From a virus (taxonomy: Duplodnaviria; Caudoviricetes), in the IMG/VR virus record IMGVR_UViG_3300028025_000089: a stretch of DNA of 64,000 nucleotides. One strand, given 5' to 3'. The position numbers and the translations under genes were made by a program. Under the pieces are notes generated by a model. That model was given only the letters and a program-made list of their open reading frames with translations, was not told where the DNA came from and searched no databases. Every line of letters starts with the position of its first letter. The first letter of the stretch is position 1. Below are positions 49,844 through 64,000 of the stretch, piece after piece.

Positions 49844-50119
49844 ATGATAAAATTAACATTTCAACATACCGTAACAATAATGAACGAAAAGTTCGGAAAT
49901 TTATTAACCGAATCTTTTGTTGATCCAATTCAGTTTAAAATATTTTTAAAAATGATTGATGGGGCTTTGAATCTTAAAGAAGATCTTTCGTTTTATGACG
50001 GGAACACATTTATGGTTCATATTCCACACAAGATATTAAAAGAATCTGTAATTTTGACTAACGTTAAAGAAGTCACTATGGCGGAGCAAGTAAGAAATAA
50101 AATTGAAACATTAGTATAA
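49844..50119 (+). CDS. Hypothetical protein
   Basis: 91-aa ORF. Confidence 0.6.
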   Translation: MIKLTFQHTVTIMNEKFGNLLTESFVDPIQFKIFLKMIDGALNLKEDLSFYDGNTFMVHIPHKILKESVILTNVKEVTMAEQVRNKIETLV

Positions 50120-50554
50120 ATGAAATATATAACATCACTTTTTTTATTGGTTTTACTAATCACTTCTTGTGTAAAAGAAGACGTAACTCCACAACAACCA
50201 TTACCACCACAACCCATAATCACTGACACAACAACTGTGGACTCCACCATAAGTCTAAAAAACACAACGTGGGTCATTACAAAGATTCTAAACACAAGTT
50301 TTAATCAAGAACTTAGATCTGACACACTTGTTTTTATTTCAAATAATGTGTATTCTTTCAATGGAGTTCAGTCAACATATAATTTGTATTCAAATGCTTT
50401 TGGATATTCTTTAACTTTGAACAATACGCCTTGGGGTCATATTAGTGGAACTATATATGATTACAACTTAACACAAGGTTTAGTTGAAAATTGTCAATTT
50501 AAAAACTATTTTACAGGACAAAATAGTGTTAGAATTTGGATGGAAAAACAATAG
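50120..50554 (+). CDS. Lipoprotein
   Basis: Lipobox LITSC after a hydrophobic signal; possible lipocalin-like beta domain. Confidence 0.7.
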   Translation: MKYITSLFLLVLLITSCVKEDVTPQQPLPPQPIITDTTTVDSTISLKNTTWVITKILNTSFNQELRSDTLVFISNNVYSFNGVQSTYNLYSNAFGYSLTLNNTPWGHISGTIYDYNLTQGLVENCQFKNYFTGQNSVRIWMEKQ

Positions 50555-50616
50555 TTTCCTTGTTCTTTTAAAAACAAGGTGGTGGAGAAATGACACATTC
50601 AGTGTCGACCAAAAAT

Positions 50617-50644
50617 AAAGGTGAGAATTTTTCTCACCTTTTTT
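50617..50644 (+). terminator. Intrinsic terminator
   Basis: Stem aaaggtgagaa/ttctcaccttt. Confidence 0.75.
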
Positions 50645-50678
50645 ATTTTTAATGGTATTTATAATAAAAATATCATTT

Positions 50679-51116
50679 ATGAAAAAAGATCTTTTCAAAA
50701 TCAACGAAGAAGACAGAAATAGAATTTTGGAAATGCATATAACGGCAACCAAAAATAAATATTTGTTTGAAGATGACACAACAACCACAACAACAACTAC
50801 AGTGGCCGCCGCACCTACAACACCAACACCCGCAGCAAGATACACAACAGCAACTTGTGCAGGAAAAAAACCTAACTGCCAAGAAAAAGTTTTAAAAATT
50901 CAAATTAGAATGAATGATGAATGTCCTGCCGAAGTCTTGACCACAAAACTTGTTGAAGATGGGGCTTGGGGAACAAAAAGTTCGACAGCGTGGGAAGCTT
51001 GTAAAGGTAAATTAAAACCAACAAAACAAGCACCAACAAATCCTACTACCGATCAAAAACCGGCGGTAGACAATACGACAAGTCAAGATACAATGAATCA
51101 AATGTTTAATAGTTAA
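50679..51116 (+). CDS. Leader-family protein with a Thr-rich linker and a PG-binding-like motif
   Basis: MKKDLFKINEEDRNRILEMH...YLFE leader; LVEDGAWGTKS; start at 50679 after TATTTAT. Confidence 0.65.
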   Translation: MKKDLFKINEEDRNRILEMHITATKNKYLFEDDTTTTTTTTVAAAPTTPTPAARYTTATCAGKKPNCQEKVLKIQIRMNDECPAEVLTTKLVEDGAWGTKSSTAWEACKGKLKPTKQAPTNPTTDQKPAVDNTTSQDTMNQMFNS

Positions 51117-51120
51117 AAAG

Positions 51121-51891
51121 ATGGGAAATATAATACTAACAGAAAACCAATATTCAAGAATAAAAGATTTTATTATCGAACAAGGATTAAAAATGGATGA
51201 ATTTTTTAAAATTGATAATAAAACTGGACAGGCAACAACGATAAAAGACATACAACTACTTCAAAACACGTTCATAAAACAAGGTGCCGTATTTAAGTTA
51301 AGTCCCAATGGGAATGTTACTTCTAACGCCACTGTAACCACAAACGGAACTGATTATAAAAAGTTTGTTGCAATTTATTGCGATAAAAATTATAAAATTC
51401 AATGGGGAAATGATAAAACTGGAAATTCTTATCTTGAAAACACATCAAATTTAAGTGCTAGAAAAGCACTTGAAAGTGTTTGTAGCACTTTGAAAAAAAT
51501 TAAACAAGGATTATCTAAAACTTATGGAACTGAGGCCGTTGGTGGTGGAATGGGTTATACTCAAAAATATGATCAACCAATAACAAGTCAAGATAATAAA
51601 AAAATGACAATACCAAAAGGAACAGGTTTTGTCCCTAAAAAAGATGGTGCTGGTGCTAGTTTTAAACTTGGAAATGATTTTGGTTGGTTTGATTGTAAAA
51701 CTAAAAACTTTGTGATAAATAAAGTTAAATATACTAGCGATACTTTGTCTAAATCACTATCAGCAAATTTGTGTAAATCTGAAACTCCAACACCAAACGT
51801 TGTTGGTGGAGGTGGTGGAACTAATACACCTGGTTCGAAAGGAGGAGGATCTTCTACAGCACTTCCACCTGATATTGATTTATATATTTAA
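51121..51891 (+). CDS. Leader-family protein (MGNIILTENQY...FIIE)
   Basis: Conserved leader; Gly-rich C-terminus. Confidence 0.65.
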   Translation: MGNIILTENQYSRIKDFIIEQGLKMDEFFKIDNKTGQATTIKDIQLLQNTFIKQGAVFKLSPNGNVTSNATVTTNGTDYKKFVAIYCDKNYKIQWGNDKTGNSYLENTSNLSARKALESVCSTLKKIKQGLSKTYGTEAVGGGMGYTQKYDQPITSQDNKKMTIPKGTGFVPKKDGAGASFKLGNDFGWFDCKTKNFVINKVKYTSDTLSKSLSANLCKSETPTPNVVGGGGGTNTPGSKGGGSSTALPPDIDLYI

Positions 51892-51931
51892 AATATAAAT
51901 AATTTATATAATATTTATTAAAAAAAAAGAA

Positions 51932-52894
51932 ATGAAAAATAAGTTACATATGACAGAAAGCGAAATGAAAAGAATACTTTCGCTTCACAAAGAAAGAATT
52001 GATAAAGAAAGAAAAATTATCAAAGAACAAAATGGTGACATTGAAGAAGATGTTGATCCAGGACAATCTACAGGTAGAATCTTTGCCGGTTCTGCGGCGG
52101 GTGCTGGAACAGGTGCTCTTGTTGGATTGTCGGTGGCGGGACTTGCTGGACTTCCTGTAGGTGCTGTAATCGGTGCTGGAGTTGGTGCTTTATCAGGTTG
52201 GTTTACGACAGGAGGTGGATATGCCGAAAGAGTTCAAAAGTTATTTAAATTTTGTAGAGATCACAGATCAGATTTAACTAAACCTTTAAATTCAATAGAT
52301 AAAATTAGAGATATTGCTGACAATCTAAGAGCCGCAATGGCGGGTGTAGGAACTGATGAAGTTTTAATTGCAAAAAATCTTAGAAAACTTAAAACGATTC
52401 CAGATCTTTGTAAGTTGAGTCAAGTATATAATCAAAGATACGATCAAACTTTATTTGACGCATTAAATGGCGATATTGACCAAGATGGTGAGTGGAGAGA
52501 TTTTGTATGGGTTCCACTTTCTGAATTAACAAAAAATACAAAAAAAGTAGATCCTTCCAAATTAAAAGAAAATGCAAGACAATGTGGTTGGGGTAGTGAT
52601 ATTGATGGTTATAGAAATTCAGGATGGAGATGTCCAAAAGATAAAAATGTAACACCACCACCAGGACCATACCCACCTGGGCCAGGACCAAGTCCTGTTC
52701 CTGGAGGTGGCGGATATTCGTTTGATTACGAAAAAATAATGAAAGAGATCAATTCAAAATGTAAAGGAACACCAACACCTGGTGGAGGTGGAGAAGAAGA
52801 AATTCAAAATATTGAATGGAGTGTAACTGACGTGAATCAACCAACACAAGACACTAAAGTTTCTTCAGAAACAATTAACAAATTATTTAAATAA
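51932..52894 (+). CDS. Leader-family protein with a glycine-zipper hairpin and an annexin-like repeat
   Basis: AAGAGTGALVGLSVAGLAGLPVGAVIGAGVGALSG, then LRAAMAGVGTDEVLIAKNL...YNQRYDQTLFDAL. Confidence 0.7.
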   Translation: MKNKLHMTESEMKRILSLHKERIDKERKIIKEQNGDIEEDVDPGQSTGRIFAGSAAGAGTGALVGLSVAGLAGLPVGAVIGAGVGALSGWFTTGGGYAERVQKLFKFCRDHRSDLTKPLNSIDKIRDIADNLRAAMAGVGTDEVLIAKNLRKLKTIPDLCKLSQVYNQRYDQTLFDALNGDIDQDGEWRDFVWVPLSELTKNTKKVDPSKLKENARQCGWGSDIDGYRNSGWRCPKDKNVTPPPGPYPPGPGPSPVPGGGGYSFDYEKIMKEINSKCKGTPTPGGGGEEEIQNIEWSVTDVNQPTQDTKVSSETINKLFK

Positions 52895-52901
52895 TTAAAA
52901 T

Positions 52902-53063
52902 ATGGAAAAGAGAAGATTATTAGAGCAGACCATGAGTCAAATTAAAGAAGTTCAAAGTAAATTAAATAGTTGTTTTAATGCTGGTTTAGTTGTTGACGGA
53001 AAACTAGGACCCAAAACCGCAAACGCAATTATGAAACATCTCGGTATTAATATATCGAATTAA
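52902..53063 (+). CDS. Small peptidoglycan-binding-like protein (53 aa, not in track)
   Basis: MEKRRLLE|Q...EVQSKLN...GLVVDGKLGPKTANAI fits the PG_binding_1 pattern. Confidence 0.6.
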   Translation: MEKRRLLEQTMSQIKEVQSKLNSCFNAGLVVDGKLGPKTANAIMKHLGINISN

Positions 53064-53081
53064 TATTTCAAAAATTCACAT

Positions 53082-53106
53082 AAAGGGAGTTTGACTCCCT
53101 TTTTTT
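53082..53106 (+). terminator. Intrinsic terminator
   Basis: Stem aaagggagt/actcccttt. Confidence 0.75.
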
Positions 53107-53122
53107 ATGCGATTTTTTTTCT

Positions 53123-53130
53123 TATCTTTG
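53123..53130 (+). promoter_or_regulatory. Bacteroidota-type -7 element
   Basis: TATCTTTG, 4 nt before the ATG at 53135. Confidence 0.55.
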
Positions 53131-53134
53131 TTGT

Positions 53135-53524
53135 ATGGAAAAAATGTTGTATTTAGTAAGAGGTTTACCAGGATCAGGTAAATCAACATTTGCAAAAACT
53201 TTGGGTGGAGAACATTACGAAGCCGATATTTTTTTTATAGATGGGAACGGTGAATATAAATTTGATGGTTCAAAAATTAAATGGGCTCACGAGTGGTGTC
53301 ACGATATGGTTTATATGGATATGATAAAAGAAATACCAAAAATTGTCGTTTCAAATACATTTACACAAGACTGGGAAATGGAACCCTACTTTGAATTAGC
53401 AGAAAAATATGGATATAAAGTATTTTCAATTATTATTGAGAATAGACACAAGGGAACAAATGTTCATGGTGTTCCTGAAGATAAGTTAGAACAAATGAAA
53501 AATCGTTTTGAAATAAAATTATGA
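53135..53524 (+). CDS. P-loop kinase (AAA_33 / N4BP2-like polynucleotide kinase)
   Basis: Motifs LVRGLPGSGKST, EAD.FF, IVVSNTFT..WE and NVHGVP. Confidence 0.75.
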   Translation: MEKMLYLVRGLPGSGKSTFAKTLGGEHYEADIFFIDGNGEYKFDGSKIKWAHEWCHDMVYMDMIKEIPKIVVSNTFTQDWEMEPYFELAEKYGYKVFSIIIENRHKGTNVHGVPEDKLEQMKNRFEIKL

Positions 53525-54177
53525 TGAAATTTGATAAAATATTAACAACAGGAACTGTGTGGATCACATCTGATACACACTATCACCACACAAATATCTG
53601 TCGAGGAGTTACAAGATGGAGAACTTTAGATGGTAAAATCCCTACAGATCATACAAGAAATTTTCAAGATCTTGATGAGATGGATTCGGTTATTGTTAAT
53701 AACATAAATTCAAAAGTCGGACCTAACGACACTTTAATACATTTGGGTGATGTGGCTTTTGGTGGGTTTGAAAAGATTGGTGAATTTTTGAATCGACTTG
53801 TTTGTAAAAATATTCACCTTGTTTTAGGTAATCACGATCAACACATAACCAAAAATAAAGAAGACATCAGAAGTAGATTTTTATCCGTTTCAAATTATTT
53901 AGAAGTTGAAATAGGTGGGGTTGAATTTGTTTTATCACATTATCCCCTTTGTAGTTGGAATAAATTAGGGAAAGGATCTATTCATTTACACGGACACGTT
54001 CATTTGTCTGCTAAAGATAAATGGGGTAATGGAAAACGATTAGATGTTGGTATGGATGGTAATAACATGCACCCATATAAATTATCAGAGATAGTTCATA
54101 TGATGGATCGTCGTGAGGTTAAATCTGAGATGAATCTTGATCATCACACATTCGAAATGGTTGGGGTTGTGGGATAA
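53521..54177 (+). CDS. Calcineurin-like metallophosphoesterase
   Basis: Motifs SDTHYHH, HLGDV, GNHD, SHYP and HLHGHVH. Confidence 0.85.
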   Translation: MMKFDKILTTGTVWITSDTHYHHTNICRGVTRWRTLDGKIPTDHTRNFQDLDEMDSVIVNNINSKVGPNDTLIHLGDVAFGGFEKIGEFLNRLVCKNIHLVLGNHDQHITKNKEDIRSRFLSVSNYLEVEIGGVEFVLSHYPLCSWNKLGKGSIHLHGHVHLSAKDKWGNGKRLDVGMDGNNMHPYKLSEIVHMMDRREVKSEMNLDHHTFEMVGVVG

Positions 54178-54203
54178 ACCATAACTCCAACATATTTATT
54201 ATT

Positions 54204-55451
54204 ATGAAAATTATTATATCTGAAAACCAATTAAGACTTATAAATGAAGCTTTAGGTGTTCCTGATTTTATTTTGGATGCTGCCGACATGTTATATGATG
54301 TTGTTGAAAATGACATCAGATCAATAGACGACATTCAAGATGAATATAATTTTAAGGGTAAAATTAATTTTGAATTGGGTGATAAGAAGAAAATAAGAAT
54401 CGACTCTTATGAACTTAACGTAAAAATCGAAGAAATGGAAGATGAAGAGGGAGTTTTAGATATTATTTCAATGGGTATGGGAGGAAGATTTGGTTTTGAC
54501 AGAGATGTTAATTTAAAAATAAATGAACCCTCAACCACCTTGAACTTAGATATAACTTTTGCTGTTGGTGACAATTGGAAACCAGAAGAGCTTATCGATA
54601 AAATGGAAGAGGAAAGAGATGAAAATGTATCGGCTTTGGCTCATGAAATAAAACACAAATACGATAAACAAGCTAAAGAATATAGTCGTATGGGTCCTGA
54701 TGCGGTTTATCAAGCAACACAACAAAAAGGGAATTTTGCAATACCGGCAATTGATAGAGTTTTTTATAGATTTATGTATTACATTCACGCAATTGAAAAC
54801 CTTGTTAGACCAACAGAAGTTGCATATTCTATGAAGAGAAAGAACATTACAAAATCACAGTTCAAAGACTTTTTAGAGGATAATAGAGTTTATAAAGAGT
54901 TATTAAGAATTAAAAACTACACTTTTGATAATTTTATACAAGATTTAAAACAACAAGAAGATAGATTGGATGCTCTTTTAGAACACATCGGTGAAGACCC
55001 ATCTGACATGTCTATTGATGAAAAAATAAACCGAGTATTAGAAGTTGTTTATATTGATTTAGTAAATAACAGAATGGACTTTTTTATGCAAATGACTCAA
55101 GGTCCTATGGATGACTTTTTAACATTTGGAGCACAACTTGGAATGATACCACCAGGATTTGAAGAAAAAATGAAACAACTTCAAAAAACAAATGAGATTA
55201 GACAAAAGTTTTTATCACGAACTATGAGGTATGAAAAAAACCCAACTAAGTTTTTTGAGGACGAATTTGAAGAATTTAATTATGTTGCAAACAAAATGTT
55301 AAAGAAAATTTCTAAACTATACGCAATGGCAAAAGACGACGAACAAGTCAGTGAATCGATTCTAAATTGGGATCTTCACCAACAAATTATGGAAAAAAAA
55401 TATGGAAAAAGAAAAATCGAAACAAAATACAAAAATTGGAATCTTAAATAA
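54204..55451 (+). CDS. Leader-family protein with an HExxH (zincin-like) motif
   Basis: MKIIISENQLRLINE leader; ALAHEIKH and a downstream PTE. Confidence 0.65.
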   Translation: MKIIISENQLRLINEALGVPDFILDAADMLYDVVENDIRSIDDIQDEYNFKGKINFELGDKKKIRIDSYELNVKIEEMEDEEGVLDIISMGMGGRFGFDRDVNLKINEPSTTLNLDITFAVGDNWKPEELIDKMEEERDENVSALAHEIKHKYDKQAKEYSRMGPDAVYQATQQKGNFAIPAIDRVFYRFMYYIHAIENLVRPTEVAYSMKRKNITKSQFKDFLEDNRVYKELLRIKNYTFDNFIQDLKQQEDRLDALLEHIGEDPSDMSIDEKINRVLEVVYIDLVNNRMDFFMQMTQGPMDDFLTFGAQLGMIPPGFEEKMKQLQKTNEIRQKFLSRTMRYEKNPTKFFEDEFEEFNYVANKMLKKISKLYAMAKDDEQVSESILNWDLHQQIMEKKYGKRKIETKYKNWNLK

Positions 55452-55809
55452 ATTATTGGTATTCTTACCATTTCTGACATTATCTTTTATTTTAAAATTA
55501 CCCGAATATAAAGGAATTGCCACTTACTACGGACAACATTGGACAGGAAGATTAACGGCATCAGGAGAAAGATTTCATGCCGATAGTCTAACCGCAGCTC
55601 ACAAATACTTTAAGTTTGGAACAATAGTAAAAGTTGTTAATCATCATAACGACTCAGTTTGTTATGTTAAGGTTAATGATCGACTACCAAAAAGTTCAAA
55701 ATTCATCATTGATTTGAGTTATGGAACCGCAAAACAACTTAATTTTTTAAAGAGAGGTGTGATAAATGTCACACTAACACCGGTTGATACGGTTGAAATT
55801 AGAAAATAA
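55402..55809 (+). CDS. rlpA: RlpA-like double-psi beta-barrel lytic transglycosylase
   Basis: Motifs GIATYYG, TASGERF...LTAAH, V.VNDR and IIDLS...A. Confidence 0.85.
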   Translation: MEKEKSKQNTKIGILNKLLVFLPFLTLSFILKLPEYKGIATYYGQHWTGRLTASGERFHADSLTAAHKYFKFGTIVKVVNHHNDSVCYVKVNDRLPKSSKFIIDLSYGTAKQLNFLKRGVINVTLTPVDTVEIRK

Positions 55810-55973
55810 TAAATGTAACGGGTGGTTTGCTCAATGGGGTGTATTTAATATACAACAATTAAGTAGTTCTTCGTATTTATTGTAGTAACTCGACCGGCCC
55901 ATGGTAGATGGGGGTTTCCAATTAGGATTCTTCAAGTGAGTATAATAATTAATGTGTTTTAATTTTATACGCA

Positions 55974-58427
55974 ATGAAGAATCTATTATTATCGATTTTT
56001 GTTTTTTTTACAACTTTCGTCACTTTATCACAATCTTGCACTCACACTATAAGACTAACCGATACTTTTGGTGATGGTTGGAATGGGGGTGCGGTTTCTG
56101 TTTCTGTTAATGGTGCTACTGTTCTGAGTAACATTACTTTTAGTTCTGGATTGGGACCAGTAAATTTTAACTTTAGTGCGTCATCAGGTCAAACAATTAG
56201 AGTATGGAGAACTTTATCGGGAACATATCCATCTGAAATGAGAGTTCAAATAGTAAATAATGTTGGCACAATTCTATTAAATACAATACAACCCGTAACA
56301 GGAACCGCAACAACAGGTGGTTATACTTGTGTTGCTAGTTGTTCAGGTGGTGGAAGTGGAGGTTGTATTAATCTAAGTTCATATGGGTCACTAACCGCAC
56401 CATCCATACCTGGAGCTCAAACAATTAGCACTTGCACATTTCAATCAGAGTATAATACCATTTTTAGTGTTGTTTCTGGAAGACAATATAGATCGACATA
56501 TAATTTAGGTGGTTATATAACAGTTAGACATACATCATACAATGGAACTGTGGTTGCAGCAGGTTTTTCACCTTTAACATGGACTGCTCCTGTGTCGGGA
56601 ACTTATTATATTCACTACAATACTAATTCATCATGTGGAACCGCATCATCTTGTGGAACAACAACGATTGAATGTCTTTCTTGTTCGGCTCCTGCGGCAC
56701 CTGTAAATGATTTAGTTTGTAATGCAACATCAATATCTTGTGGTCAAATTATTTCAGGAACAACAGTCAATGCCACTAACAGCGGAAACGGAGAAAATGG
56801 GTTTTGTGATGTATCACAAACTCAACCTGGAGTTTGGTATATGATTCCTGGGAATGGACAGATTATGACGGCTTATCTCTGTAATACTGCTTGGGATAGT
56901 AAGATCTCGGTTTTTAGTGGTCCTAATTGTTCATCTTTAACTTGCGTTGGCGGTAACGATGATTATGGACCAACGTGTGCCACAACATCAGCATCTTATC
57001 AATGGACATCGACGGTTGGACTAAATTACTACATACTAGTTCATGGATACAGCTCAACTAGTGCCTTTCAGATTGGATTGATCTGCTCAACACCACCACC
57101 CCCTTCACCAACATCAATCACACAGTCAAGTAATCCGATCTGTTCTGGAGGATCAACAACTTTAACTGCGAATGGTGCCGTTGGAACGGTTTATTGGTAT
57201 ATTAATGGGTGTGGTGTAACTCAGATTGGTGTAGGAAATTCCATCACGGTGTCTCCTACTACAACTACCACTTATAACGCTAGAAATTACAATGGAGGGC
57301 TTTTTAGTAATGGATGTGTCTCGACTACGGTTACCGTTAATCCAACACCAACAGTTTCGGTAAGTTCAGTAACAAACACAATTTGTTCGGGATCTAACAC
57401 ACAATTGATTTCATCAGTGGGGAATAATGGAGGATCACCAATAACATACTCATGGTCTCCATCTACAGGACTAACAAATCCAAATGCACCAAGTCCTTTT
57501 GCATCACCGACAAGTAATCAATCATATACACTAACGGTGTCATCAAATGGATGTTCAAATGCGACATCAACAACAATAAATGTTAATCCGTCTGTTGGAT
57601 TTGTATCAACAATATCAGGAAACAACACAATTATTGCGGGAACTCAAGAAACATATTCTATTACACCTGTTCCAAACGCAACATATCAGTGGGCTTACAC
57701 TCAATCGATAACGGCACCATATTGGTCAAACTTACCAAACTCTAATACGCCATCAATATCTTTTTATTGGCCTCAAACAACAACCGATGGGTCTGTTAAA
57801 GTTACGGTTTCAAATTCAAACAATTGTGGAACTCAAGTTAGGTTTTTTAATATCATAACAAACGGAGCTTTACCTGTCGAACTATTATCATTTGACGGAA
57901 TTTGTAATGATAATCTTATCACATTAAATTGGAGAACTGCCACTGAACATAACACATCCCACTTTGATGTTCTTAAATCAAGAGATGGTGAGAATTGGTC
58001 TAAATTAACAACCTTGAATTCTGCTGGTAACTCAACTCAAGAATTAAGTTATTCTACAAAAGATGAAAATGCAATTGACGGAAACAATTATTATAAATTA
58101 ATCCAATATGATATAGATGGGGTTAGTGATGAATACGGACCGATTAATATTATTTGTAATGGAAATTCAAAAGGGTATTTTTCAACATTTCCAAATCCAA
58201 GTTCAGGATCTTTTCAAGTTGTGTTAAATAATAAAAATATGATCGGAAATGGTAAAATTGAAATTCAAGATTCAAAAGGGTCAATTGTTTTAGAAAAAGA
58301 AATTGAAATAAAGGGAGGTATTAATTTATATAATCTTGATATGTTAAATATTGTGTCAGGAGTATATTACATAAAAGTAACATCAAACGAGTTTTCAACT
58401 AATACCATAAAACAAATAATCAAGTAA
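55974..58427 (+). CDS. Secreted multidomain protein with a type IX secretion (Por) C-terminal sorting domain
   Basis: Sec signal MKNLLLSIFVFF..., DTFGDGWNG, Ig-like repeats, LPVELLSF domain, and CTD FPNPSSG...GVYYIKV...KQIIK. Confidence 0.85.
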   Translation: MKNLLLSIFVFFTTFVTLSQSCTHTIRLTDTFGDGWNGGAVSVSVNGATVLSNITFSSGLGPVNFNFSASSGQTIRVWRTLSGTYPSEMRVQIVNNVGTILLNTIQPVTGTATTGGYTCVASCSGGGSGGCINLSSYGSLTAPSIPGAQTISTCTFQSEYNTIFSVVSGRQYRSTYNLGGYITVRHTSYNGTVVAAGFSPLTWTAPVSGTYYIHYNTNSSCGTASSCGTTTIECLSCSAPAAPVNDLVCNATSISCGQIISGTTVNATNSGNGENGFCDVSQTQPGVWYMIPGNGQIMTAYLCNTAWDSKISVFSGPNCSSLTCVGGNDDYGPTCATTSASYQWTSTVGLNYYILVHGYSSTSAFQIGLICSTPPPPSPTSITQSSNPICSGGSTTLTANGAVGTVYWYINGCGVTQIGVGNSITVSPTTTTTYNARNYNGGLFSNGCVSTTVTVNPTPTVSVSSVTNTICSGSNTQLISSVGNNGGSPITYSWSPSTGLTNPNAPSPFASPTSNQSYTLTVSSNGCSNATSTTINVNPSVGFVSTISGNNTIIAGTQETYSITPVPNATYQWAYTQSITAPYWSNLPNSNTPSISFYWPQTTTDGSVKVTVSNSNNCGTQVRFFNIITNGALPVELLSFDGICNDNLITLNWRTATEHNTSHFDVLKSRDGENWSKLTTLNSAGNSTQELSYSTKDENAIDGNNYYKLIQYDIDGVSDEYGPINIICNGNSKGYFSTFPNPSSGSFQVVLNNKNMIGNGKIEIQDSKGSIVLEKEIEIKGGINLYNLDMLNIVSGVYYIKVTSNEFSTNTIKQIIK

Positions 58428-58428
58428 T

Positions 58429-58632
58429 ATGGAAATAATAATCTTCGGATTTTTGATTGTCATAATGGTTTATTGTATTAGAGATCTTGTCGAGTTATTT
58501 TCCGAAATTATAAAACTAAATTTTTTAGTTGGGGTTTCTTTAGTAGTCTTAATTCTAGTTTCAATATTTTTATTTGTTTATTATGAGACAGTGTTTCTTT
58601 GTTATTTACTAAATAATGAAATTTTTAATTAA
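58429..58632 (+). CDS. Small membrane protein
   Basis: Very hydrophobic 67-aa ORF. Confidence 0.45.
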   Translation: MEIIIFGFLIVIMVYCIRDLVELFSEIIKLNFLVGVSLVVLILVSIFLFVYYETVFLCYLLNNEIFN

Positions 58633-58662
58633 AATAATTTTCATTCATTCAAATTAATTTCT

Positions 58663-58670
58663 TATCTTTG
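58663..58670 (+). promoter_or_regulatory. Bacteroidota-type -7 element
   Basis: TATCTTTG, 4 nt before the GTG at 58675. Confidence 0.55.
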
Positions 58671-58674
58671 TAAG

Positions 58675-58857
58675 GTGAAAAAACCCTGTAAAGAATGCCC
58701 CCATTTAATTCGTAATCGTCACAACGATATGATTGTTGATTTTGGTCGTAGAACTGGAAAAAGACACAATTGTCATATGACAGAGGGGGTAAAAGATTTG
58801 TGGAATGTTAAAGATGAAAAGTTTGAATGTTATGGATCAAAAAAAGAAAAAGTTTAG
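58675..58857 (+). CDS. Small Cys/His-rich protein
   Basis: Motifs PCKECPH, CHM and C.GS. Confidence 0.55.
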   Translation: MKKPCKECPHLIRNRHNDMIVDFGRRTGKRHNCHMTEGVKDLWNVKDEKFECYGSKKEKV

Positions 58858-59038
58858 ATTACCAAGAAAAACCAAAAAAAGATTAGAAAAGGATTTCTAT
58901 ACTTATCCAAAAAGTGAAAGAGATACTTACTTAATTGCTTGGCCATCCAAATACGAGGAAGATTATATTGCGTATAAAAAAGGTTTATTAAGAGGTTTAA
59001 AAGAAGAATCAAAAAAAAGATTAAAAGATGAAAAATAG
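58805..59038 (+). CDS. Basic hypothetical protein
   Basis: RLPRKTKK motif. Confidence 0.5.
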   Translation: MLKMKSLNVMDQKKKKFRLPRKTKKRLEKDFYTYPKSERDTYLIAWPSKYEEDYIAYKKGLLRGLKEESKKRLKDEK

Positions 59039-59249
59039 AGAAATAATTTACGGAGTTTGTGACAAGACAGGATCTTGCGAAACATATTTTGGGTTCTTCA
59101 AAACTAAAGAAGATGCCGAACACGAAGTTCAAGTTCAGGCGAATAGACTCAAAGAGGATTTGGGTTGGATGGATATTGAAATAAAAAACGATAGAGCCAT
59201 AGTTGAAGGAAAATTAGTGATAGTAATTCACCAATATGTTCTTCGATGA
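59028..59249 (+). CDS. Hypothetical protein, paralog of 61954..62202
   Basis: IIYGVCDKTGSC..YFGFFK.KEDA matches IIFGVYDKT...C..YFGYFK.ESDA. Confidence 0.6.
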   Translation: MKNREIIYGVCDKTGSCETYFGFFKTKEDAEHEVQVQANRLKEDLGWMDIEIKNDRAIVEGKLVIVIHQYVLR

Positions 59250-59509
59250 TTAAAAGGTATTTGATTGTTTTCTTATCAGCTCTTATATTAGAGATTGGAA
59301 GCACATTTTATATCACTGTTGTTGCCGACAAAAATTATCTTGGAATGTTATTTTTTGCATTCATCGGACCATTTTTGTCATTACCTTTCGTGGGATTTAT
59401 GGTTGAGTCAAAGACTTGGAAGGAGAGATTAAAATTGGCTTTATGTTCAGGACTTGGATATTTGTTTGGGTCTGTAGTTGTTATTATATTTTTGGAGTTA
59501 ATGAAATAG
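59246..59509 (+). CDS. Small multi-pass membrane protein
   Basis: About three TM helices. Confidence 0.55.
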   Translation: MIKRYLIVFLSALILEIGSTFYITVVADKNYLGMLFFAFIGPFLSLPFVGFMVESKTWKERLKLALCSGLGYLFGSVVVIIFLELMK

Positions 59510-59510
59510 T

Positions 59511-59738
59511 ATGGAAGATAAAAAAAAGGGTGGATTAGATGGTCTTATTGACATGATTGCGAGTATTGCGATTGTTTTTGTTGTATTTGCCGTTCTTTGG
59601 TATTTTATTTCTGAATATATTGATTATATCAAAAACAAAGAAACAAGGGTCGTTACAATAGTTACAACCATAATAACAATCATTTTGATGGTTTTAATTT
59701 ATAACAACCCTGAATATGTAAAAAGTTTATTAAAATGA
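59511..59738 (+). CDS. Small membrane protein
   Basis: Two TM helices. Confidence 0.5.
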   Translation: MEDKKKGGLDGLIDMIASIAIVFVVFAVLWYFISEYIDYIKNKETRVVTIVTTIITIILMVLIYNNPEYVKSLLK

Positions 59739-60097
59739 AAAAAGAAACTAAATTTGGAACTTATATAGAAAAAGAAAATGACCCTACAAAATTGACTGGT
59801 GATAAAATCAAGGTCTTTGTAGATAGATTGAAAAAAATTGGAATTGAGGTTAAACTCGTGGGTAACTTTCCTTGGGTTTATATTGATGAAATCTGCGGTA
59901 AAAAAGTAACTGAAACATTTGAGGGAAATTGGGGATTTACTTTGATATTTCTTCCTAGTAGAAATGATAGTCCTCCATCAGAATTTACAGATATTACAGA
60001 GATTTTTAAATTAATTAGAAAGTATGTCCAAGAAACAAAATTAAGAATGAAAGATTCCAAAGATGAGTTAGATGATTTTGGTATAAAAAGTTTATAA
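59735..60097 (+). CDS. Hypothetical protein
   Basis: RLKKIGIEV.LVGNFPW.YI motif. Confidence 0.6.
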   Translation: MKKETKFGTYIEKENDPTKLTGDKIKVFVDRLKKIGIEVKLVGNFPWVYIDEICGKKVTETFEGNWGFTLIFLPSRNDSPPSEFTDITEIFKLIRKYVQETKLRMKDSKDELDDFGIKSL

Positions 60098-60102
60098 AAA
60101 TT

Positions 60103-60519
60103 ATGAAAGATAAAAAAATATATTTAGATGATGTTCGAACACCTATTGATAAAGATTGGATTGTTGTTCGTTCTTACGAAGAGTTTGTTAGTAAAGTAAA
60201 TGAAATTGGTTTGAATAATATTGAACTAATTTCGTTAGATCACGATTTGGGGGACACTGCAATTGATGAATGGAAAAGAAATGTTTATACAAATTATACA
60301 ATTGATTACAATAATATTACAGAAAAAACAGGTATGGATTGTGTTAAGTGGTTAGTTAATGAGTGGATGAATGGTAAACCAGTTGTTGATGTTGTTGTTC
60401 ATTCACACAACGCAATTGGAAGTGGTAATATGATGGGTTATATTAATAACTACCGACATATCAATCGTTTGAAACAGAATTGCATTAGACTTGAGTGGGA
60501 TTATACAATAGAAAAATAA
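60103..60519 (+). CDS. Cyclic-phosphate-processing receiver-like domain protein
   Basis: Motifs IYLDDVR.P, W.VVRSY.EF, ISLDHDLG, TG.DC.KWL and VHS.N..G..NM. Confidence 0.75.
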   Translation: MKDKKIYLDDVRTPIDKDWIVVRSYEEFVSKVNEIGLNNIELISLDHDLGDTAIDEWKRNVYTNYTIDYNNITEKTGMDCVKWLVNEWMNGKPVVDVVVHSHNAIGSGNMMGYINNYRHINRLKQNCIRLEWDYTIEK

Positions 60520-60525
60520 TAGAAA

Positions 60526-61647
60526 ATGGAAAATTTAAATAGTGTATGTTATGTTGGTTTAGTTTGTGAAATAAAACCAATAGAAGGGGCTGATAATATA
60601 GAACTTGCCGTTGTTGGCGGATGGAACGCAATCGTAAAAAAAGGTGAATACAAAGTTACCGATTTGGTTGTTGTTGCAACTACTGACGCTGTAATACCAT
60701 TGAAACTTTCTGATGGTTTGGGTGTTACAGGTTATTTACGAAAAGGACAACGAGTAAGAACTGTAAAACTTCGCGGAGTATATTCTGAATGTTTAATAAT
60801 ACCAATAGGTTTTGTTCCCCCTAAATACAGATATGAAGGATCTGATTGTATGGAATTACTTGAGGTTTTCAAATACGAACCGCCAGTTAAAATGGTTGAA
60901 ATGAGTGTTGGAGGTAGAAAGGTTAAATACCACCAAAATCCTAACTTCCACGTTTATTATAAGTTTCCTAACTTGAAGAATGTTCCTGAGTTATTCACCG
61001 AAGAAGATGAGGTCGTTATCACTCGTAAAATGCATGGAACAAACGCTCGTTATGGTATTGTAAGAAAGAAAAGATTAAGTCTTTGGGATCGTGTTAGAAA
61101 GTTCTTTGGTAATGAATGGGTCGAATTCGATTATGTCTATGGATCCCACAATGTCGAGAAAGGTTCTACATCTCAAGGATTTTATTCTACTGATGTTTGG
61201 AGAACTGTGGCGGAACAATACAATATCCAAAACAAACTTTGGAAGTATGTTAAAGAATATTACACCCCTGAAAGATTGGGAACTGGTATTGTAATCTATG
61301 GTGAAATCTATGGACATGGAATACAAAAAAATTATGACTATGGATTAAGTGATATTCGTTTTTCTGGATTTGACGTTGAGGTTGATGGGGTTTATCGTGA
61401 GTTTTTAGTTGAAAGGGGAATATTTAATGATTTAGATTTACCTGTGGTTGATTTACTTTATCAAGGTAATTGGAATAAAGAAACTCAAGATAGATTTGTA
61501 TTCAACAATTTTGTTGAAGGAACCAAAGTTCCACACGAAGGTGTTGTTGTAAAACATATCAGCGGTGATCGTCAAAAAGTTGGAAAAGTTATAAATCCGG
61601 ATTATCACATATTCAGCGAAAAAAACAACGTTGGTGACTCCCATTAA
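60526..61647 (+). CDS. RNA ligase (DRB0094 / Rnl2-like) with an N-terminal OB-like domain
   Basis: IEGADNIE, VRTVKLRGVYSECL, motif I KMHGTN, YGEIYG, FDV, EGVVVK and KVINPDY. Confidence 0.85.
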   Translation: MENLNSVCYVGLVCEIKPIEGADNIELAVVGGWNAIVKKGEYKVTDLVVVATTDAVIPLKLSDGLGVTGYLRKGQRVRTVKLRGVYSECLIIPIGFVPPKYRYEGSDCMELLEVFKYEPPVKMVEMSVGGRKVKYHQNPNFHVYYKFPNLKNVPELFTEEDEVVITRKMHGTNARYGIVRKKRLSLWDRVRKFFGNEWVEFDYVYGSHNVEKGSTSQGFYSTDVWRTVAEQYNIQNKLWKYVKEYYTPERLGTGIVIYGEIYGHGIQKNYDYGLSDIRFSGFDVEVDGVYREFLVERGIFNDLDLPVVDLLYQGNWNKETQDRFVFNNFVEGTKVPHEGVVVKHISGDRQKVGKVINPDYHIFSEKNNVGDSH

Positions 61648-61669
61648 CTTGATGGGATCACCTTTTTTT
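61633..61669 (+). terminator. Intrinsic terminator overlapping the ligase stop
   Basis: Stem ggtga-tcccat/atggga-tcacc plus T-run. Confidence 0.65.
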
Positions 61670-61677
61670 ATTATTAT
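61649..61677 (+). promoter_or_regulatory. Class-2 promoter
   Basis: TTGATG-N17-TATTAT. Confidence 0.4.
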
Positions 61678-61696
61678 TTAAAAAAAAGAAAATACT

Positions 61697-61957
61697 ATGG
61701 CAACATTTTGGACAGAAGCAGAAGTAGAATTAGATGTAAATGACATCTACGAAAATTTATCAGACCGAGAGGTTTTGAAAATGGTTGATTTATTTGTTGA
61801 AGAAGGTTTGGTGATTTCAACAAACACAAGTAAAAATGAAAGTATGAATTTTTTAGATCAGGAGTGGAAGAAAACACTAGTGAATCTAATGAACAATAGA
61901 CACAGACTTTCAAACGAAGATGAAGAAATGATTAAATCAATCTCAAACAAGTTGTGA
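61697..61957 (+). CDS. Hypothetical protein
   Basis: 86-aa ORF. Confidence 0.6.
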   Translation: MATFWTEAEVELDVNDIYENLSDREVLKMVDLFVEEGLVISTNTSKNESMNFLDQEWKKTLVNLMNNRHRLSNEDEEMIKSISNKL

Positions 61958-62202
61958 TGAGTAAAGAAACTAACATTATTTTTGGTGTCTATGATAAAAC
62001 AAGAGGTGTTGGAGGTTGCGATGATTACTTTGGATATTTCAAAAAAGAATCGGATGCAAGAACCGAAATGAAAACACAATTCGAACACCTTAAAACTAAA
62101 AACCCAAAAGATACTTTAAAACTTCATAAAGATAGAGTTGTTAAGGTTAAAGAAAAAACAGAAGAGATATTAATAATAATACACCCAATTTTAGTGAGAT
62201 GA
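61954..62202 (+). CDS. Hypothetical protein, paralog of 59028..59249
   Basis: Shared N-terminal motif with 59028..59249. Confidence 0.6.
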   Translation: MMSKETNIIFGVYDKTRGVGGCDDYFGYFKKESDARTEMKTQFEHLKTKNPKDTLKLHKDRVVKVKEKTEEILIIIHPILVR

Positions 62203-63137
62203 TAGAGAAATTAAAAACTATATATATTGATGATGAACCTATGTTAGATCATGATGATAAACCAACCAGTAATTCACCAACATGTTGGGGTAGATTACAA
62301 GATGAGGAGTATTCACCATCATTTCCATCGGCCAATAAAGTTCCTGCAGGTATTTATGAAATAGTATGGAACAGACAATTAAGTCAGCACACCCTAAAAA
62401 AACAACCTTTTAAAACAGATGAGTTATATCAATTACCTTCTTATGAAATTCAGGACATTCTCAAAGACATTCAAAATTTTTGGGATCGTAGAGAGAAATA
62501 TAGAAAATATAATTTTGTTCATAAGCGTGGGATTTTAATGTATGGAGAACCTGGTTGCGGGAAATCAGGAATTATTCAGTTGATTTCAAAACAACTTATT
62601 GAAAATGACGGAATTATTATCAACGTAAAAGACCAAGATGATATTGACTATTTTATAGATTTTATATCAACGTTCAGAAAGATTGAAAAAGAAAGACCTT
62701 TGATTGTGATCTTGGAAGACATCGACTCAATTGCCGGTGAAAGTAGTCATTCAACAAGTAGATTATTAAACATCTTGGATGGTGTAAAACAAATTGAAGA
62801 TGTTGTTTATATTGCGACAACCAATTACCCTGAAAAACTACAAGATCGTATCACAAACAGACCATCACGTTTTGACAGACGTTATAAAGTTGAATTACCT
62901 AATGAGGAGATTAGACGAGCATACATCCAACACAAATTAACTGAAGAAGATATTAAAAATATTAATATCGAAGAATGGGTAAAAAGAACTGATGGAATGT
63001 CCCTTTCACACTTGAAAGAGGTTGTAATTTCAACTATAGTTATGGGTAGAGAATTCGAGGAAGTTATGGACAACCTTGAAGGATTAAAAAGAGCTCCGTC
63101 AGTAAGGGGTTCAGGAAAAATGGGATTTGGAAAATAA
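62199..63137 (+). CDS. AAA+ ATPase (BCS1/proteasome-like clade)
   Basis: Motifs RGILMYGEPGCGKS, ILEDID, LLNILDG, ATTNYPEKL and RPSRFD. Confidence 0.85.
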   Translation: MIEKLKTIYIDDEPMLDHDDKPTSNSPTCWGRLQDEEYSPSFPSANKVPAGIYEIVWNRQLSQHTLKKQPFKTDELYQLPSYEIQDILKDIQNFWDRREKYRKYNFVHKRGILMYGEPGCGKSGIIQLISKQLIENDGIIINVKDQDDIDYFIDFISTFRKIEKERPLIVILEDIDSIAGESSHSTSRLLNILDGVKQIEDVVYIATTNYPEKLQDRITNRPSRFDRRYKVELPNEEIRRAYIQHKLTEEDIKNINIEEWVKRTDGMSLSHLKEVVISTIVMGREFEEVMDNLEGLKRAPSVRGSGKMGFGK

Positions 63138-63142
63138 GAAAA

Positions 63143-63322
63143 ATGGAAATAGAGCACGAAGGAAGTATTTATGAAACAAACATCACTAAACCAATATTGG
63201 AAGGTGATTTATATTATGATTGTATGATTAACGAAGTTAAGATGTGTAAATCTTATATTTGTTTTGATCCTTGGTCATTAAAGATGGAATTAAAAAAAGA
63301 AGAAGAAAATGAAAAAGTTTAG
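63143..63322 (+). CDS. Small Cys-containing protein (59 aa, not in track)
   Basis: MEIEHEGSIYETN...YDCMINEVKMCKSYICFDPW. Confidence 0.5.
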   Translation: MEIEHEGSIYETNITKPILEGDLYYDCMINEVKMCKSYICFDPWSLKMELKKEEENEKV

Positions 63323-63488
63323 TTTAATAGTTGGATTATTGTTACTTGTAAGTTGCAAAAGTTCAAAAAGTGGATGTGATGCATATGGAAGTAACACTAT
63401 GAAAAGTGATTCAATTAAAATTAAAGTCGAACATTGTCATATAGAAGAAGAAAACTATTGTTACTATTCTATTGATACACTTAGATAA
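63309..63488 (+). CDS. Small lipoprotein (59 aa, not in track)
   Basis: MKKFSLIVGLLLLVSC lipobox followed by KSSKSGCDAYG. Confidence 0.65.
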   Translation: MKKFSLIVGLLLLVSCKSSKSGCDAYGSNTMKSDSIKIKVEHCHIEEENYCYYSIDTLR

Positions 63489-63520
63489 TTGATTGTTGTT
63501 GGTTCAATCATTAAAAAATA

Positions 63521-63703
63521 CCAATCGTAGGGTGTCTGGCGTAATCCGACACAGGTTGAAAATCCCACTCCTAGGTAAAATTAATCCCCATCTTAGTGGT
63601 GGGGATCTCATTTAAGAGACCCCATCCTTAGTGGTGGGCTTTTAGGACCGTTATCCGTTAGGGTAACAATCAAAAGGGGGAATTCGCTACTCCCCCTTTT
63701 TTT
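63521..63703 (+). ncRNA. Candidate structured ncRNA with two near-identical hairpins, ending in an intrinsic terminator
   Basis: Stems gtgtc/gacac, atcccca-TCTTAGTGG-tggggat, ccccatCCTTAGTGGtggg and gttatcc/gggtaac; terminator aaaaggggga/tcccccttttt. Confidence 0.5.
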
Positions 63704-63726
63704 ATTTAACAAAGTATTTATCTTAT

Positions 63727-64000
63727 ATGAAAATAATAATAACAGAAAGTCAGTATAATCTTTTATTTGAAAATAAAAAAAATCAATCTTTATTTGATAT
63801 TATTAAATACGAAGGTTGGGAATCTGCCGCTGAATTAGTTGGAGGTATTGAGAATCTTAAAAAATTGACAGGAATTGAAACTCCTATAGATTTTTTAAAT
63901 ATTTTTACTGATTTGGATGTTGTTCAGAGTGAAGAAGAACCTGATTGGACTTTATTTAGGTATGAAAAAAAAAATAATGTAATGATTTACGATAGAAAAA
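63727..64000 (+). CDS. Leader-family protein (MKIIITESQYNLLFE), truncated at window end
   Basis: TATTTAT at 63715-63721; frame open to the window edge. Confidence 0.7.
   Translation, partial: MKIIITESQYNLLFENKKNQSLFDIIKYEGWESAAELVGGIENLKKLTGIETPIDFLNIFTDLDVVQSEEEPDWTLFRYEKKNNVMIYDRK

Follow-up and report, generated by a model that had tools for sequence, protein, structure and literature searches.

The window analysed here, a stretch of 64,000 nucleotides from the Caudoviricetes record IMGVR_UViG_3300028025_000089, carries on its plus strand (55974..58427) a gene for an 817-residue protein, P0001, that begins with a predicted Sec signal peptide and ends in a putative type A C-terminal sorting domain (CTD) of a type IX secretion system (T9SS). 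The gene is preceded by a near-invariant, phage-only leader of about 55 nucleotides. The computed domain composition, the CTD, the phage context, the conservation of the gene, the joint mobility of leader and open reading frame (ORF) and the predicted sequestration of the AUG make it probable that this is a Sec and T9SS cargo gene, one that T4-like jumbo phages of Flavobacteriales-type Bacteroidota in fresh water carry as a mobile, moron-like accessory cassette, with the leader gating its translation.

The probable cargo gene and its product

The ORF at 55974..58427 is the only long one in the interval to which the initial annotation had assigned the gene. That interval was taken to begin at 55874, which is the first base of a TATTTAT motif and not the start of the ORF. 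The central claim of the initial annotation, that the product is a cargo of the host T9SS, holds at the level of sequence, in that every feature looked for in a Sec-dependent type A cargo is present, with export itself being predicted from those features. The component observations, namely a Sec signal, Cys-rich beta domains, an LPVELLSF domain and a type A CTD, were all recovered.

At the N-terminus of P0001, MKN is followed by a 15-residue hydrophobic core and by ..LS|QSC, the n-h-c layout of a putative Sec signal for signal peptidase I (SPI). The predicted signal peptide comprises residues 1-20 (55974..56033, plus strand, as are all features of the window given below), and its residues 2-15 are modelled as a helix by AlphaFold2 (AF2). 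The probable cleavage site, ..LS|Q, follows the Q-rule of Bacteroidetes, in which the hydrophobic core is followed by a small residue and Gln (PMC5837995). A reading of ..SQS|C as a lipoprotein signal was dropped, as there is no lipobox and the Cys is missing in many relatives.

The AF2 model of P0001, built on an alignment of 52 homologues, is all-beta with a mean predicted local distance difference test (pLDDT) score of 77.5, and a separate model of residues 21-376 has a mean of 78.5. At least 16 Cys are invariant among the 52 homologues, consistent with an extracytoplasmic, disulfide-bonded protein. The modelled head starts with N1, a weakly carbohydrate-binding-module (CBM)-like beta-sandwich with an invariant TDTxGDGWNGG (residues 21-120; 56034..56333), whose closest fold is 2xhh (Z 7.4, root-mean-square deviation (rmsd) 3.5, 96 residues aligned). 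It is followed by N2, a jelly-roll/CBM-like domain (residues 130-235; 56361..56678) that matches HA70 D3, CBM6 and a GH43 CBM with Z scores of 6-8; the scores of both domains lie within the caution range of the tool, in which a common arrangement alone could explain such matches. The third domain (residues 241-372; 56694..57089) has the fold of PPC and collagenase collagen-binding domains (CBDs), with a close match to the ColH CBD (3jqw, Z 12.3, rmsd 2.4, 109 of 117 residues aligned) and further matches to 1nqd (Z 11.4) and 5sv5 (Z 10.3). The Pfam PPC profile gave no score in a profile scan of the protein.

The head is carried on three immunoglobulin (Ig)-like domains (residues 377-630; 57102..57863), identified by Pfam, Foldseek and hidden Markov model (HMM) matches; the first two match the CHU_C-associated family Ig_7 (PF19081, 31.3 bits against a gathering score of 27.3, in two stretches of which 377-457 is the best). 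These lead into a pre-CTD module (residues 631-733; 57864..58172), a beta-sandwich spanning 631-730 in the model and headed by the LPVELLSF motif at residues 633-640. Look-ups in the ESM Atlas for the N1 and LPVELLSF parts gave scores below 0.9 and serve as leads only. The extreme C-terminus is occupied by the CTD (residues 739-817; 58188..58424), which lies above the curated cut-offs in both NCBIfam and Pfam: the scan with TIGR04183 that the initial annotation had suggested gave 29.9 bits on residues 739-817 (cut-off 23), and PF18962 gave 31.0 bits on residues 739-815 (cut-off 27). In the AF2 model this region is predicted as a compact Ig-like beta-sandwich, with seven strands within 735-816 and a block pLDDT of ~62-86; its sequence also weakly matches the 75-residue chain 8glk_D (E 0.022).

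Searched against the PDB, both the whole model and the family profile find their best matches in the Ig arrays of GhpA (Foldseek E 5e-16; HMM E 8e-6), a T9SS-exported grappling-hook adhesin of Aureispira (bioRxiv 10.1101/2024.01.29.577165). This likeness is one of generic Ig architecture and not of orthology. No catalytic domain was detected in P0001, and the model resembles a small lectin or adhesin on a stalk, of the type exported by the T9SS of Bacteroidota.

Exchange of the cargo gene between phages

The database holds 879 relatives of P0001. Full-length relatives at 60-93% identity lie on contigs of ~283 kb, two of which come from separate sources and have an identical gene order around the cargo gene, and about 20 IMG/VR loci have most of the flanking genes in common with the window. 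The cargo gene is also found, at 62-81% protein identity, in phage contigs whose gene content is otherwise almost entirely different from that of the window. These carriers include a lineage of ~520 kb (L003), a lineage of 152-157 kb (L008/L114), a complete 166-kb genome with direct terminal repeats (L012/G004) and a 262-kb contig (L014), and further carriers exist. In a maximum-likelihood tree built from the N-terminal 355 residues, the copy of the 152-kb lineage (L008) groups with a copy from the 283-kb lineage (L001) with support of 100/99. The only close bacterial sequence falls within the phage sequences, where its sister is L017 (98/86), so that the tree fixes no direction of transfer between phage and bacterium. 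Exchange of the cargo gene between phages is clear. When the window was compared by blastn with six non-syntenic phages, homology started at 55886-55889 each time and stopped within the 3' part of the ORF, indicating that the mobile unit consists of the leader and the ORF and does not include the promoter.

Two observations on the carriers may be added. In the 152-157-kb lineage (L114:12461-14669, also L115), three short genes come after the cargo gene, with matches to ALK_LTK_GRD, PKD_6 and CHU_C, the last of these being the type B T9SS sorting domain, and after them a tRNA-synthetase-like gene; by its appearance, the trio is a type B cargo in pieces or a second modular T9SS cargo. The records behind the 262-kb contig L014 (G002) and behind L008 (G003, 152 kb) carry the IMG/VR class 'provirus', and they match Gp23 weakly and in fragments (22-30 bits). 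They may represent a different kind of phage, or the provirus call may have been triggered by host-like cargo genes.

A conserved phage-only leader

The leader core of ~55 nt (55886..55945) was delimited by an alignment of upstream regions, by the homology boundary and by a covariance model, R1, which matches the window at 55884-55945 with 87.7 bits. Its consensus reads CUCGACCGGCCCAUGG-N-AGAUGGGGGUUUCC, then a gap of 5-8 nt, then GGAUUCUUCAAGUGAG. It is near-invariant in every phage lineage, comprising at least six unrelated backbones, and the DNA farther upstream is unrelated; there is one copy within the window and one per phage genome. Three helices can be drawn within it: P1 (CUC/GAG, 55889-55891/55938-55940), the P2 hairpin (55892-55916, with the loop GGUAG at 55903-55907) and P3 (UCC/GGA, 55917-55919/55925-55927). 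The hairpin cccat-ggtag-atggg that the initial annotation had noticed is present at 55898-55912 and forms the inner stem of the longer conserved hairpin 55892-55916. A short ORF within the leader (MVDGGFQLGFFK) was dropped from consideration, as the alignment shows that its frame and stop are not kept between lineages.

An Rfam 15 scan of the leader found no family, the sole match being PK-repBA at 12.7 bits (gathering score 45, E = 2). The leader does not lie upstream of the close bacterial homologue of P0001; nor was it found in 79 bacterial loci with homologous genes (1.05 Mb searched) or, by covariance-model search, in 151 sampled Flavobacteriales genomes, where the best match (25 bits, E 0.008 per genome) was taken as chance against ~85 bits for true copies. 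The exact leader pattern had no match in five bacterial genomes. Pattern scans yielded 69 viral and 110 metagenomic stretches with the leader, from two collections that overlap, and a few of the viral matches (L122, L132, L149, L162) were set aside as chance matches of half the pattern.

Predicted occlusion of the start codon

The invariant segment GAUUCUUCA of the leader is the reverse complement of UGAAGAAUC, that is, of the AUG together with codons 2-3 (Met-Lys-Asn). In the minimum free energy (MFE) fold of nucleotides 55881-56000 (-30.3 kcal/mol, z = -2.8), the conserved hairpin is kept and the invariant anti-start segment GGAUUCUUCA (55925..55934) is paired with 55975-55984 (UGAAGAAUCU). 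A spacer hairpin (55940..55972), the sequence of which varies between lineages, is predicted to stack inside the helix formed by anti-start and start. The anti-start:start duplex is calculated at -12.8 kcal/mol, and forcing the start region to be single-stranded costs 12 kcal/mol.

The pairing recurs across relatives. AUG and anti-start are paired in the MFE fold of 40 of the 41 distinct leaders in the viral set, and, over all distinct combinations of spacer and start, of 78 out of 87. By sequence, the hairpin between the two arms sorts into 21 unrelated types, 18 of which retain the sequestered fold; in these models this is covariation at the level of the whole helix. Codon 2 is AAG in 13 of the 21 spacer types, AAG accounting for only 15% of Lys codons in the ORFs of the window (3/15 at codon 2). 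As modelled, the leader thus has a conserved structure that occludes the initiation region, with covariation, and this pairing suggests gated translation. To our knowledge, initiation in Bacteroidota is largely not based on Shine-Dalgarno pairing, and mRNA structure at the start codon should therefore be decisive.

Our reading of the folds is that the leader would act as a gate on translation, closed in its default state and opened by a factor acting on the invariant 5' module. An alternative three-way junction of P1, P2 and P3 uses part of the anti-start segment; it is 96% paired, three of its pairs are changed on both sides, and compensatory changes are found in P3 and P1. Several points weigh against gating. 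The AUG pairing is weakened or lost in 3 of the 21 spacer types and in variants with an AAA codon, and the leaders are related by descent, so that the counts above are not independent. The core of the three-way junction shows little covariation, as it barely varies, and the core junction alone is no more stable than shuffled sequence (z = -0.3).

The near-invariance of the leader, where RNA helices would be expected to covary, could also be accounted for if the conserved 55-nt element acted mainly as DNA, be it as a recombination or cassette-exchange boundary, a protein-binding site or a promoter-proximal site, and not as an RNA switch. Such a role would fit the start of homology between unrelated backbones within 4 nt of the same base, the CCATGG palindrome within the element, the shuffling of the cargo modules behind it and the conflict between the gene tree, in which L008 groups with L001, and the phage backbones. 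We consider it a serious rival but an unlikely one, as it leaves unexplained why 8-10 nt are complementary to the region of the start codon, why the rare AAG codon is retained and why a spacer hairpin is preserved through 21 sequences, and as some changes in P3 and P1 are compensatory. Roles of the leader at the DNA and RNA levels may coexist.

The TATTTAT motif and timing of expression

The TATTTAT motif upstream of the leader (55874..55880) is promoter-like by its enrichment before ORFs: of 33 plus-strand copies, 14 lie no more than 40 nt upstream of a plus-strand ORF of at least 100 aa, against 1.2 expected. The usual distance from motif to ATG is 5-27 nt, and the cargo gene is an outlier at 94 nt, the gap being filled by the leader. 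The motif at the cargo gene is kept in syntenic relatives, and other phage backbones have a different sequence before the leader. Where the initial annotation had spoken of a late-type motif, the motif is indeed present, and the term 'late' holds by association with structural-type genes only, two TATTTAT-preceded ORFs having weak matches to virion proteins. Late expression of the cargo gene is plausible on the strength of this sequence association.

Proteins headed by the leader

Among all fetched loci the leader motif occurs in 205, and 132 of these have a complete downstream ORF. Their products are 88 distinct proteins, 110-1,544 aa long, which combine the modules of P0001 in 18 ways, and some of the proteins have nothing in common with it. 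All are predicted to start with a signal peptide, and in 71 of 74 distinct leader-linked N-termini the hydrophobic core ends in a small residue and Gln, as in the Q-rule. Several have a type A CTD above the cut-off, for example L117 (35 bits) and L247 (50 bits). The leader can thus be regarded, as far as the encoded sequences tell, as a general marker of phage-borne genes for putative exported proteins.

Other features of the family argue against a binding protein bound for the T9SS. The CTD is the least conserved portion of the P0001 family, and in many relatives (768-, 622- and 506-aa forms) no CTD can be recognised, the protein ending in the LPVELLSF module and a 45-aa tail, so that the family may not be bound to the T9SS route in every case. 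The fold matches of N1 and N2 are weak (Z 6-8). A variable CTD that is lost in some relatives would also fit a protein that is not exported at all but sits on the virion as an Ig-like decoration or fibre, its signal peptide and CTD being left over from a host gene that was captured. Virions commonly bear Ig-like domains (Fraser 2006, cited in PMC6949934), and TATTTAT is found upstream of structural-type genes as well. We judge this improbable, since the signal peptide, the Q-rule site and the invariant Cys pattern are kept across relatives of 60-93% identity, the Cys pattern implying an oxidising compartment, and since the CTD scores above curated cut-offs even in distant phage lineages. Moreover, the same leader heads small proteins of signal peptide and CTD, which would be senseless as virion parts, and the neighbours of the cargo gene are not structural. 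Export through Sec and the T9SS is therefore preferred for P0001.

The tail of the members that lack a CTD (L012:10001-12304, L135:2534-4399, L218:899-2416 and relatives) is a conserved stretch of ~45 aa, ..INLxGQEV..G.I.EIY.DG..K..IK, that resembles the last strands of the CTD. It is recognised by no CTD model and may be an unrecognised short sorting signal; the bacterial homologue P0121 ends in the same short form.

At the small end of the range, the leader precedes mini-proteins of 110-125 aa in which a short linker with DWY joins a signal peptide to a CTD-like domain, with hardly anything else (L195:416-754:-, L214:10714-11043:+, L217:5527-5901:+, L246:139-498:- and L205:134-499:+). Their TIGR04183 matches are weak, at 16 bits for L214 and L217, and they are possible decoy substrates of the T9SS. 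The contigs are short, and their phage context is deduced from the leader alone.

Phage backbone and bacterial relatives

Nearly all ORFs of the window lie on one strand, and its GC content is ~31%. Two syntenic relatives, G158 (272.6 kb) and G159 (291.9 kb), contain the gene immediately upstream of the cargo gene (68% and 57% identity, respectively) and encode a T4-type Gp23 capsid protein (~214 bits). On the basis of Gp23 in these relatives, the carrier is probably a T4-like jumbo phage. The 'Moraphages' (PMC12619734) were not adopted as its lineage, as they are described as distinct from T4-group phages. In searches of five phage records, Terminase_6C (PF17289) was not found, which is no evidence of absence, and neither was a RegA homologue (PF01818), which the control genomes likewise failed to match, so that this too is no evidence of absence. 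Megablast of positions 50000-64000 of the window against the phage collection gave no match. PHROGs matches of ten large ORFs of the window were weak or uninformative except for an SbcC-like protein, and a weak virion-protein match was among them.

The cargo gene has as neighbours genes for a signal-anchored RlpA/DPBB protein, a calcineurin-like phosphoesterase, an AAA_33 kinase-like protein, a cREC_REC protein, an RNA ligase and an AAA ATPase, and the SbcC-like nuclease is encoded farther upstream in the window. The RlpA-like protein (55402..55809; 135 aa) has a DPBB_1 match of 60 bits and an N-terminal signal anchor. Its gene lies beside the cargo gene in all syntenic relatives at 74-97% identity, and it would be a second exported or envelope-acting phage protein adjoining the cargo gene. 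On the other side, 2 nt past the cargo stop codon, is an ORF for a very hydrophobic protein of 67 aa with 2-3 predicted membrane spans (58429..58632). It is also called in the relative L001 (12462-12665) and is not found behind the cargo gene in the 152-157-kb lineage; a membrane partner, an immunity protein or a holin-like protein are possible. The cREC_REC (cyclic-phosphate-processing receiver) gene adjoins that for the RNA ligase 1.7 kb downstream of the cargo gene (60103..61647), and cREC_REC homologues lie no more than 10 kb from the cargo gene in otherwise unrelated backbones (L003:2886-3269; L114:547-942). This proximity may be coincidence, or a possible lead to a factor acting in trans on the leader. 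In G159, a second ORF, of 661 aa, has a strong type A CTD (53 bits; G159:C1:287643-287882, minus strand) ~13 kb from the conserved neighbour gene, indicating that some phages of the group encode more than one T9SS cargo.

A tblastn search of P0001 against phages gave matches limited to the LPVELLSF region, in three published 'huge phage' records of 462-642 kb (LR756500.1:37108-37452, LR756502.1:552853-553113 and LR756504.1:309079-309324). The domains are 36-43% identical to the LPVELLSF module (query ~627-744), and these phages may hold further secreted cargo genes.

The closest bacterial homologue of P0001 is a 1,200-aa protein from a metagenome-assembled genome (MAG) of a Lac Pavin member of the Flavobacteriia, with 61% identity over residues 5-574, 71% over the N-terminal 354 and 53% in the LPVELLSF module. 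Its gene has chromosomal surroundings (RecJ, MlaD, Amidase_3) and adjoins other T9SS cargo genes. SprA (1,791-2,439 bits) is encoded in all five Flavobacteriales MAGs that have homologous modules, the Lac Pavin MAG included, and the number of type A CTD matches in these five ranges from 74 to at least 150 per MAG.

The GC content of 38.6% at the cargo locus, against ~31% for the window as a whole, is compatible with capture of the gene from a host. Together with the existence of a bacterial homologue and the 'provirus' labels of two carrier contigs, it might also be taken as a sign of host DNA misassembled or misbinned into a phage contig, an outcome that the initial annotation had itself named as fatal to its claim. 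This is highly improbable. Many assemblies, made independently and from different samples, have the gene flanked by the same phage genes, and such repetition of the junctions excludes chimerism with host DNA. The gene is present in the 166-kb genome with direct terminal repeats, the leader was not found in the bacterial genomes searched, and the bacterial homologue has different flanks and no leader.

A proposed course of events and its significance

From these features we infer how export, its timing, the switch and the biological role could be connected. The cassette would be transcribed from a resident phage promoter, for which the TATTTAT-type motif is the candidate here. The 5' leader would then fold so that the invariant GAUUCUUCA pairs with the AUG and codons 2-3, and translation would be held off until a factor remodels the conserved 5' hairpin module; formation of the alternative P1/P2/P3 three-way junction would free the AUG. 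Once made, the protein would be directed by its signal peptide to Sec, and cleavage by SPI would expose the Gln. The disulfide-rich binding head (N1, N2 and the PPC fold) on its Ig-like stalk would fold in the periplasm, and the type A CTD would deliver the protein to the SprA translocon, with surface attachment or release as the last step. As P0001 has no catalytic domain, a lectin- or adhesin-like surface protein that alters what the infected cell sticks to or exposes is most likely, and our preferred guess at its role is aggregation or attachment, or the masking of receptors. The initial annotation had put forward superinfection exclusion, aggregation, grazer evasion, or jamming of gliding and receptor export, all of which would be candidate purposes.

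A more far-reaching and tentative proposal, which we hold to be possible and no more than that, is that the leader represents a class of translational switch that is new and specific to phages, be it a small riboswitch or an operator bound by an RNA-binding factor of phage or host, and that it gates a swappable repertoire of exported proteins. This repertoire would range from adhesins of 1,500 aa to the 110-125-aa proteins of signal peptide and CTD only, which might serve as decoys or jammers of the T9SS. If so, jumbo phages of Bacteroidota would run a regulated, modular remodelling of the host surface through the host's own secretion system.

In Bacteroidota, major degraders in both lakes and oceans, the T9SS powers gliding, the breakdown of polymers and display at the cell surface. 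A widespread and conserved phage cassette that feeds the T9SS would mean that infection reprogrammes the cell surface, with consequences for adhesion, aggregation, receptor exposure and, possibly, the colonisation of particles. The leader is also of use in itself. As a 55-nt, single-copy, phage-only marker it finds cargo genes in metagenomes whatever their protein sequence, and as a small RNA element with a clear candidate mechanism, the predicted occlusion of the start codon, it could serve as a portable regulatory part for Flavobacteria.

Comparison with known systems

Phage-encoded T9SS cargo as such is prior art, to which P0001 adds one more gene. For 'Cryophage', in which the cargo varies, it was described as 'a unique occurrence' (Bellas 2020, Nat Commun, PMC7468147), and ORFs with T9SS sorting domains were noted in crAss-like gut phages (de Jonge 2019, PMC6949934). 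As in the present case, the Cryophage proteins have type A sorting domains, the cargo differs between phage variants, and the proposed use is to hijack host secretion and thereby alter the cell surface or exclude superinfection (PMC7468147). The Cryophage cargos are, however, an endoglucanase, a GH39 protein and a PA14 protein of an unrelated cryoconite phage, for which no shared leader RNA is described (PMC7468147), whereas the cassette described here encodes a putative non-enzymatic binding protein, has a conserved leader and resides in T4-like jumbo phages. The crAss-like phages are likewise phages of Bacteroidota in which T9SS sorting domains are joined to carbohydrate-binding-type repeats, but these are BACON repeats, the genes lie near the head genes, the phages are of gut origin, and no function or regulation is assigned to the proteins there (PMC6949934).

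A related adaptation has been described in phages of P. gingivalis, which have functionally unassigned genes whose signal peptides expose an N-terminal Gln, read as an adaptation to secretion in Bacteroidota (Matrishin 2023, PMC10367356). These are temperate phages of an oral pathogen, and no T9SS CTD or leader is reported for them (PMC10367356). On the bacterial side, GhpA (PDB 9flp/9flw) and SprB share with P0001 the order of Sec signal, adhesin-like head, Ig-like stalk and C-terminal T9SS sorting domain. GhpA differs in having 5,898 residues, in forming heptamers and in being anchored by PorP/PorE homologues (bioRxiv 10.1101/2024.01.29.577165), whereas the phage protein has a different head (N1/N2/PPC) and only 817 residues, and the likeness is confined to the Ig modules.

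In a limited literature search, no description was found of a phage-only leader of this kind, of the start-codon occlusion predicted for it, or of its deployment before a shuffled set of genes for exported proteins in several unrelated lineages of jumbo phages.

The nearest precedents for the leader are the start-codon-sequestering hairpins of the T4 genes e, soc and 49, in which a late promoter lies inside the hairpin and the late transcripts are made without the inhibitory arm. Both there and in riboswitch or thermosensor platforms, a 5' segment pairs with the initiation region, and translation requires that the upstream arm be removed or remodelled, as would be the case here. The present leader differs in its invariant extra hairpin module, in having no Rfam match, in being mobile between phages and tied to putative secreted proteins, and in the position of its homology boundary and promoter-like motif, both upstream of the leader as a whole, where in T4 the late promoter lies within the hairpin.

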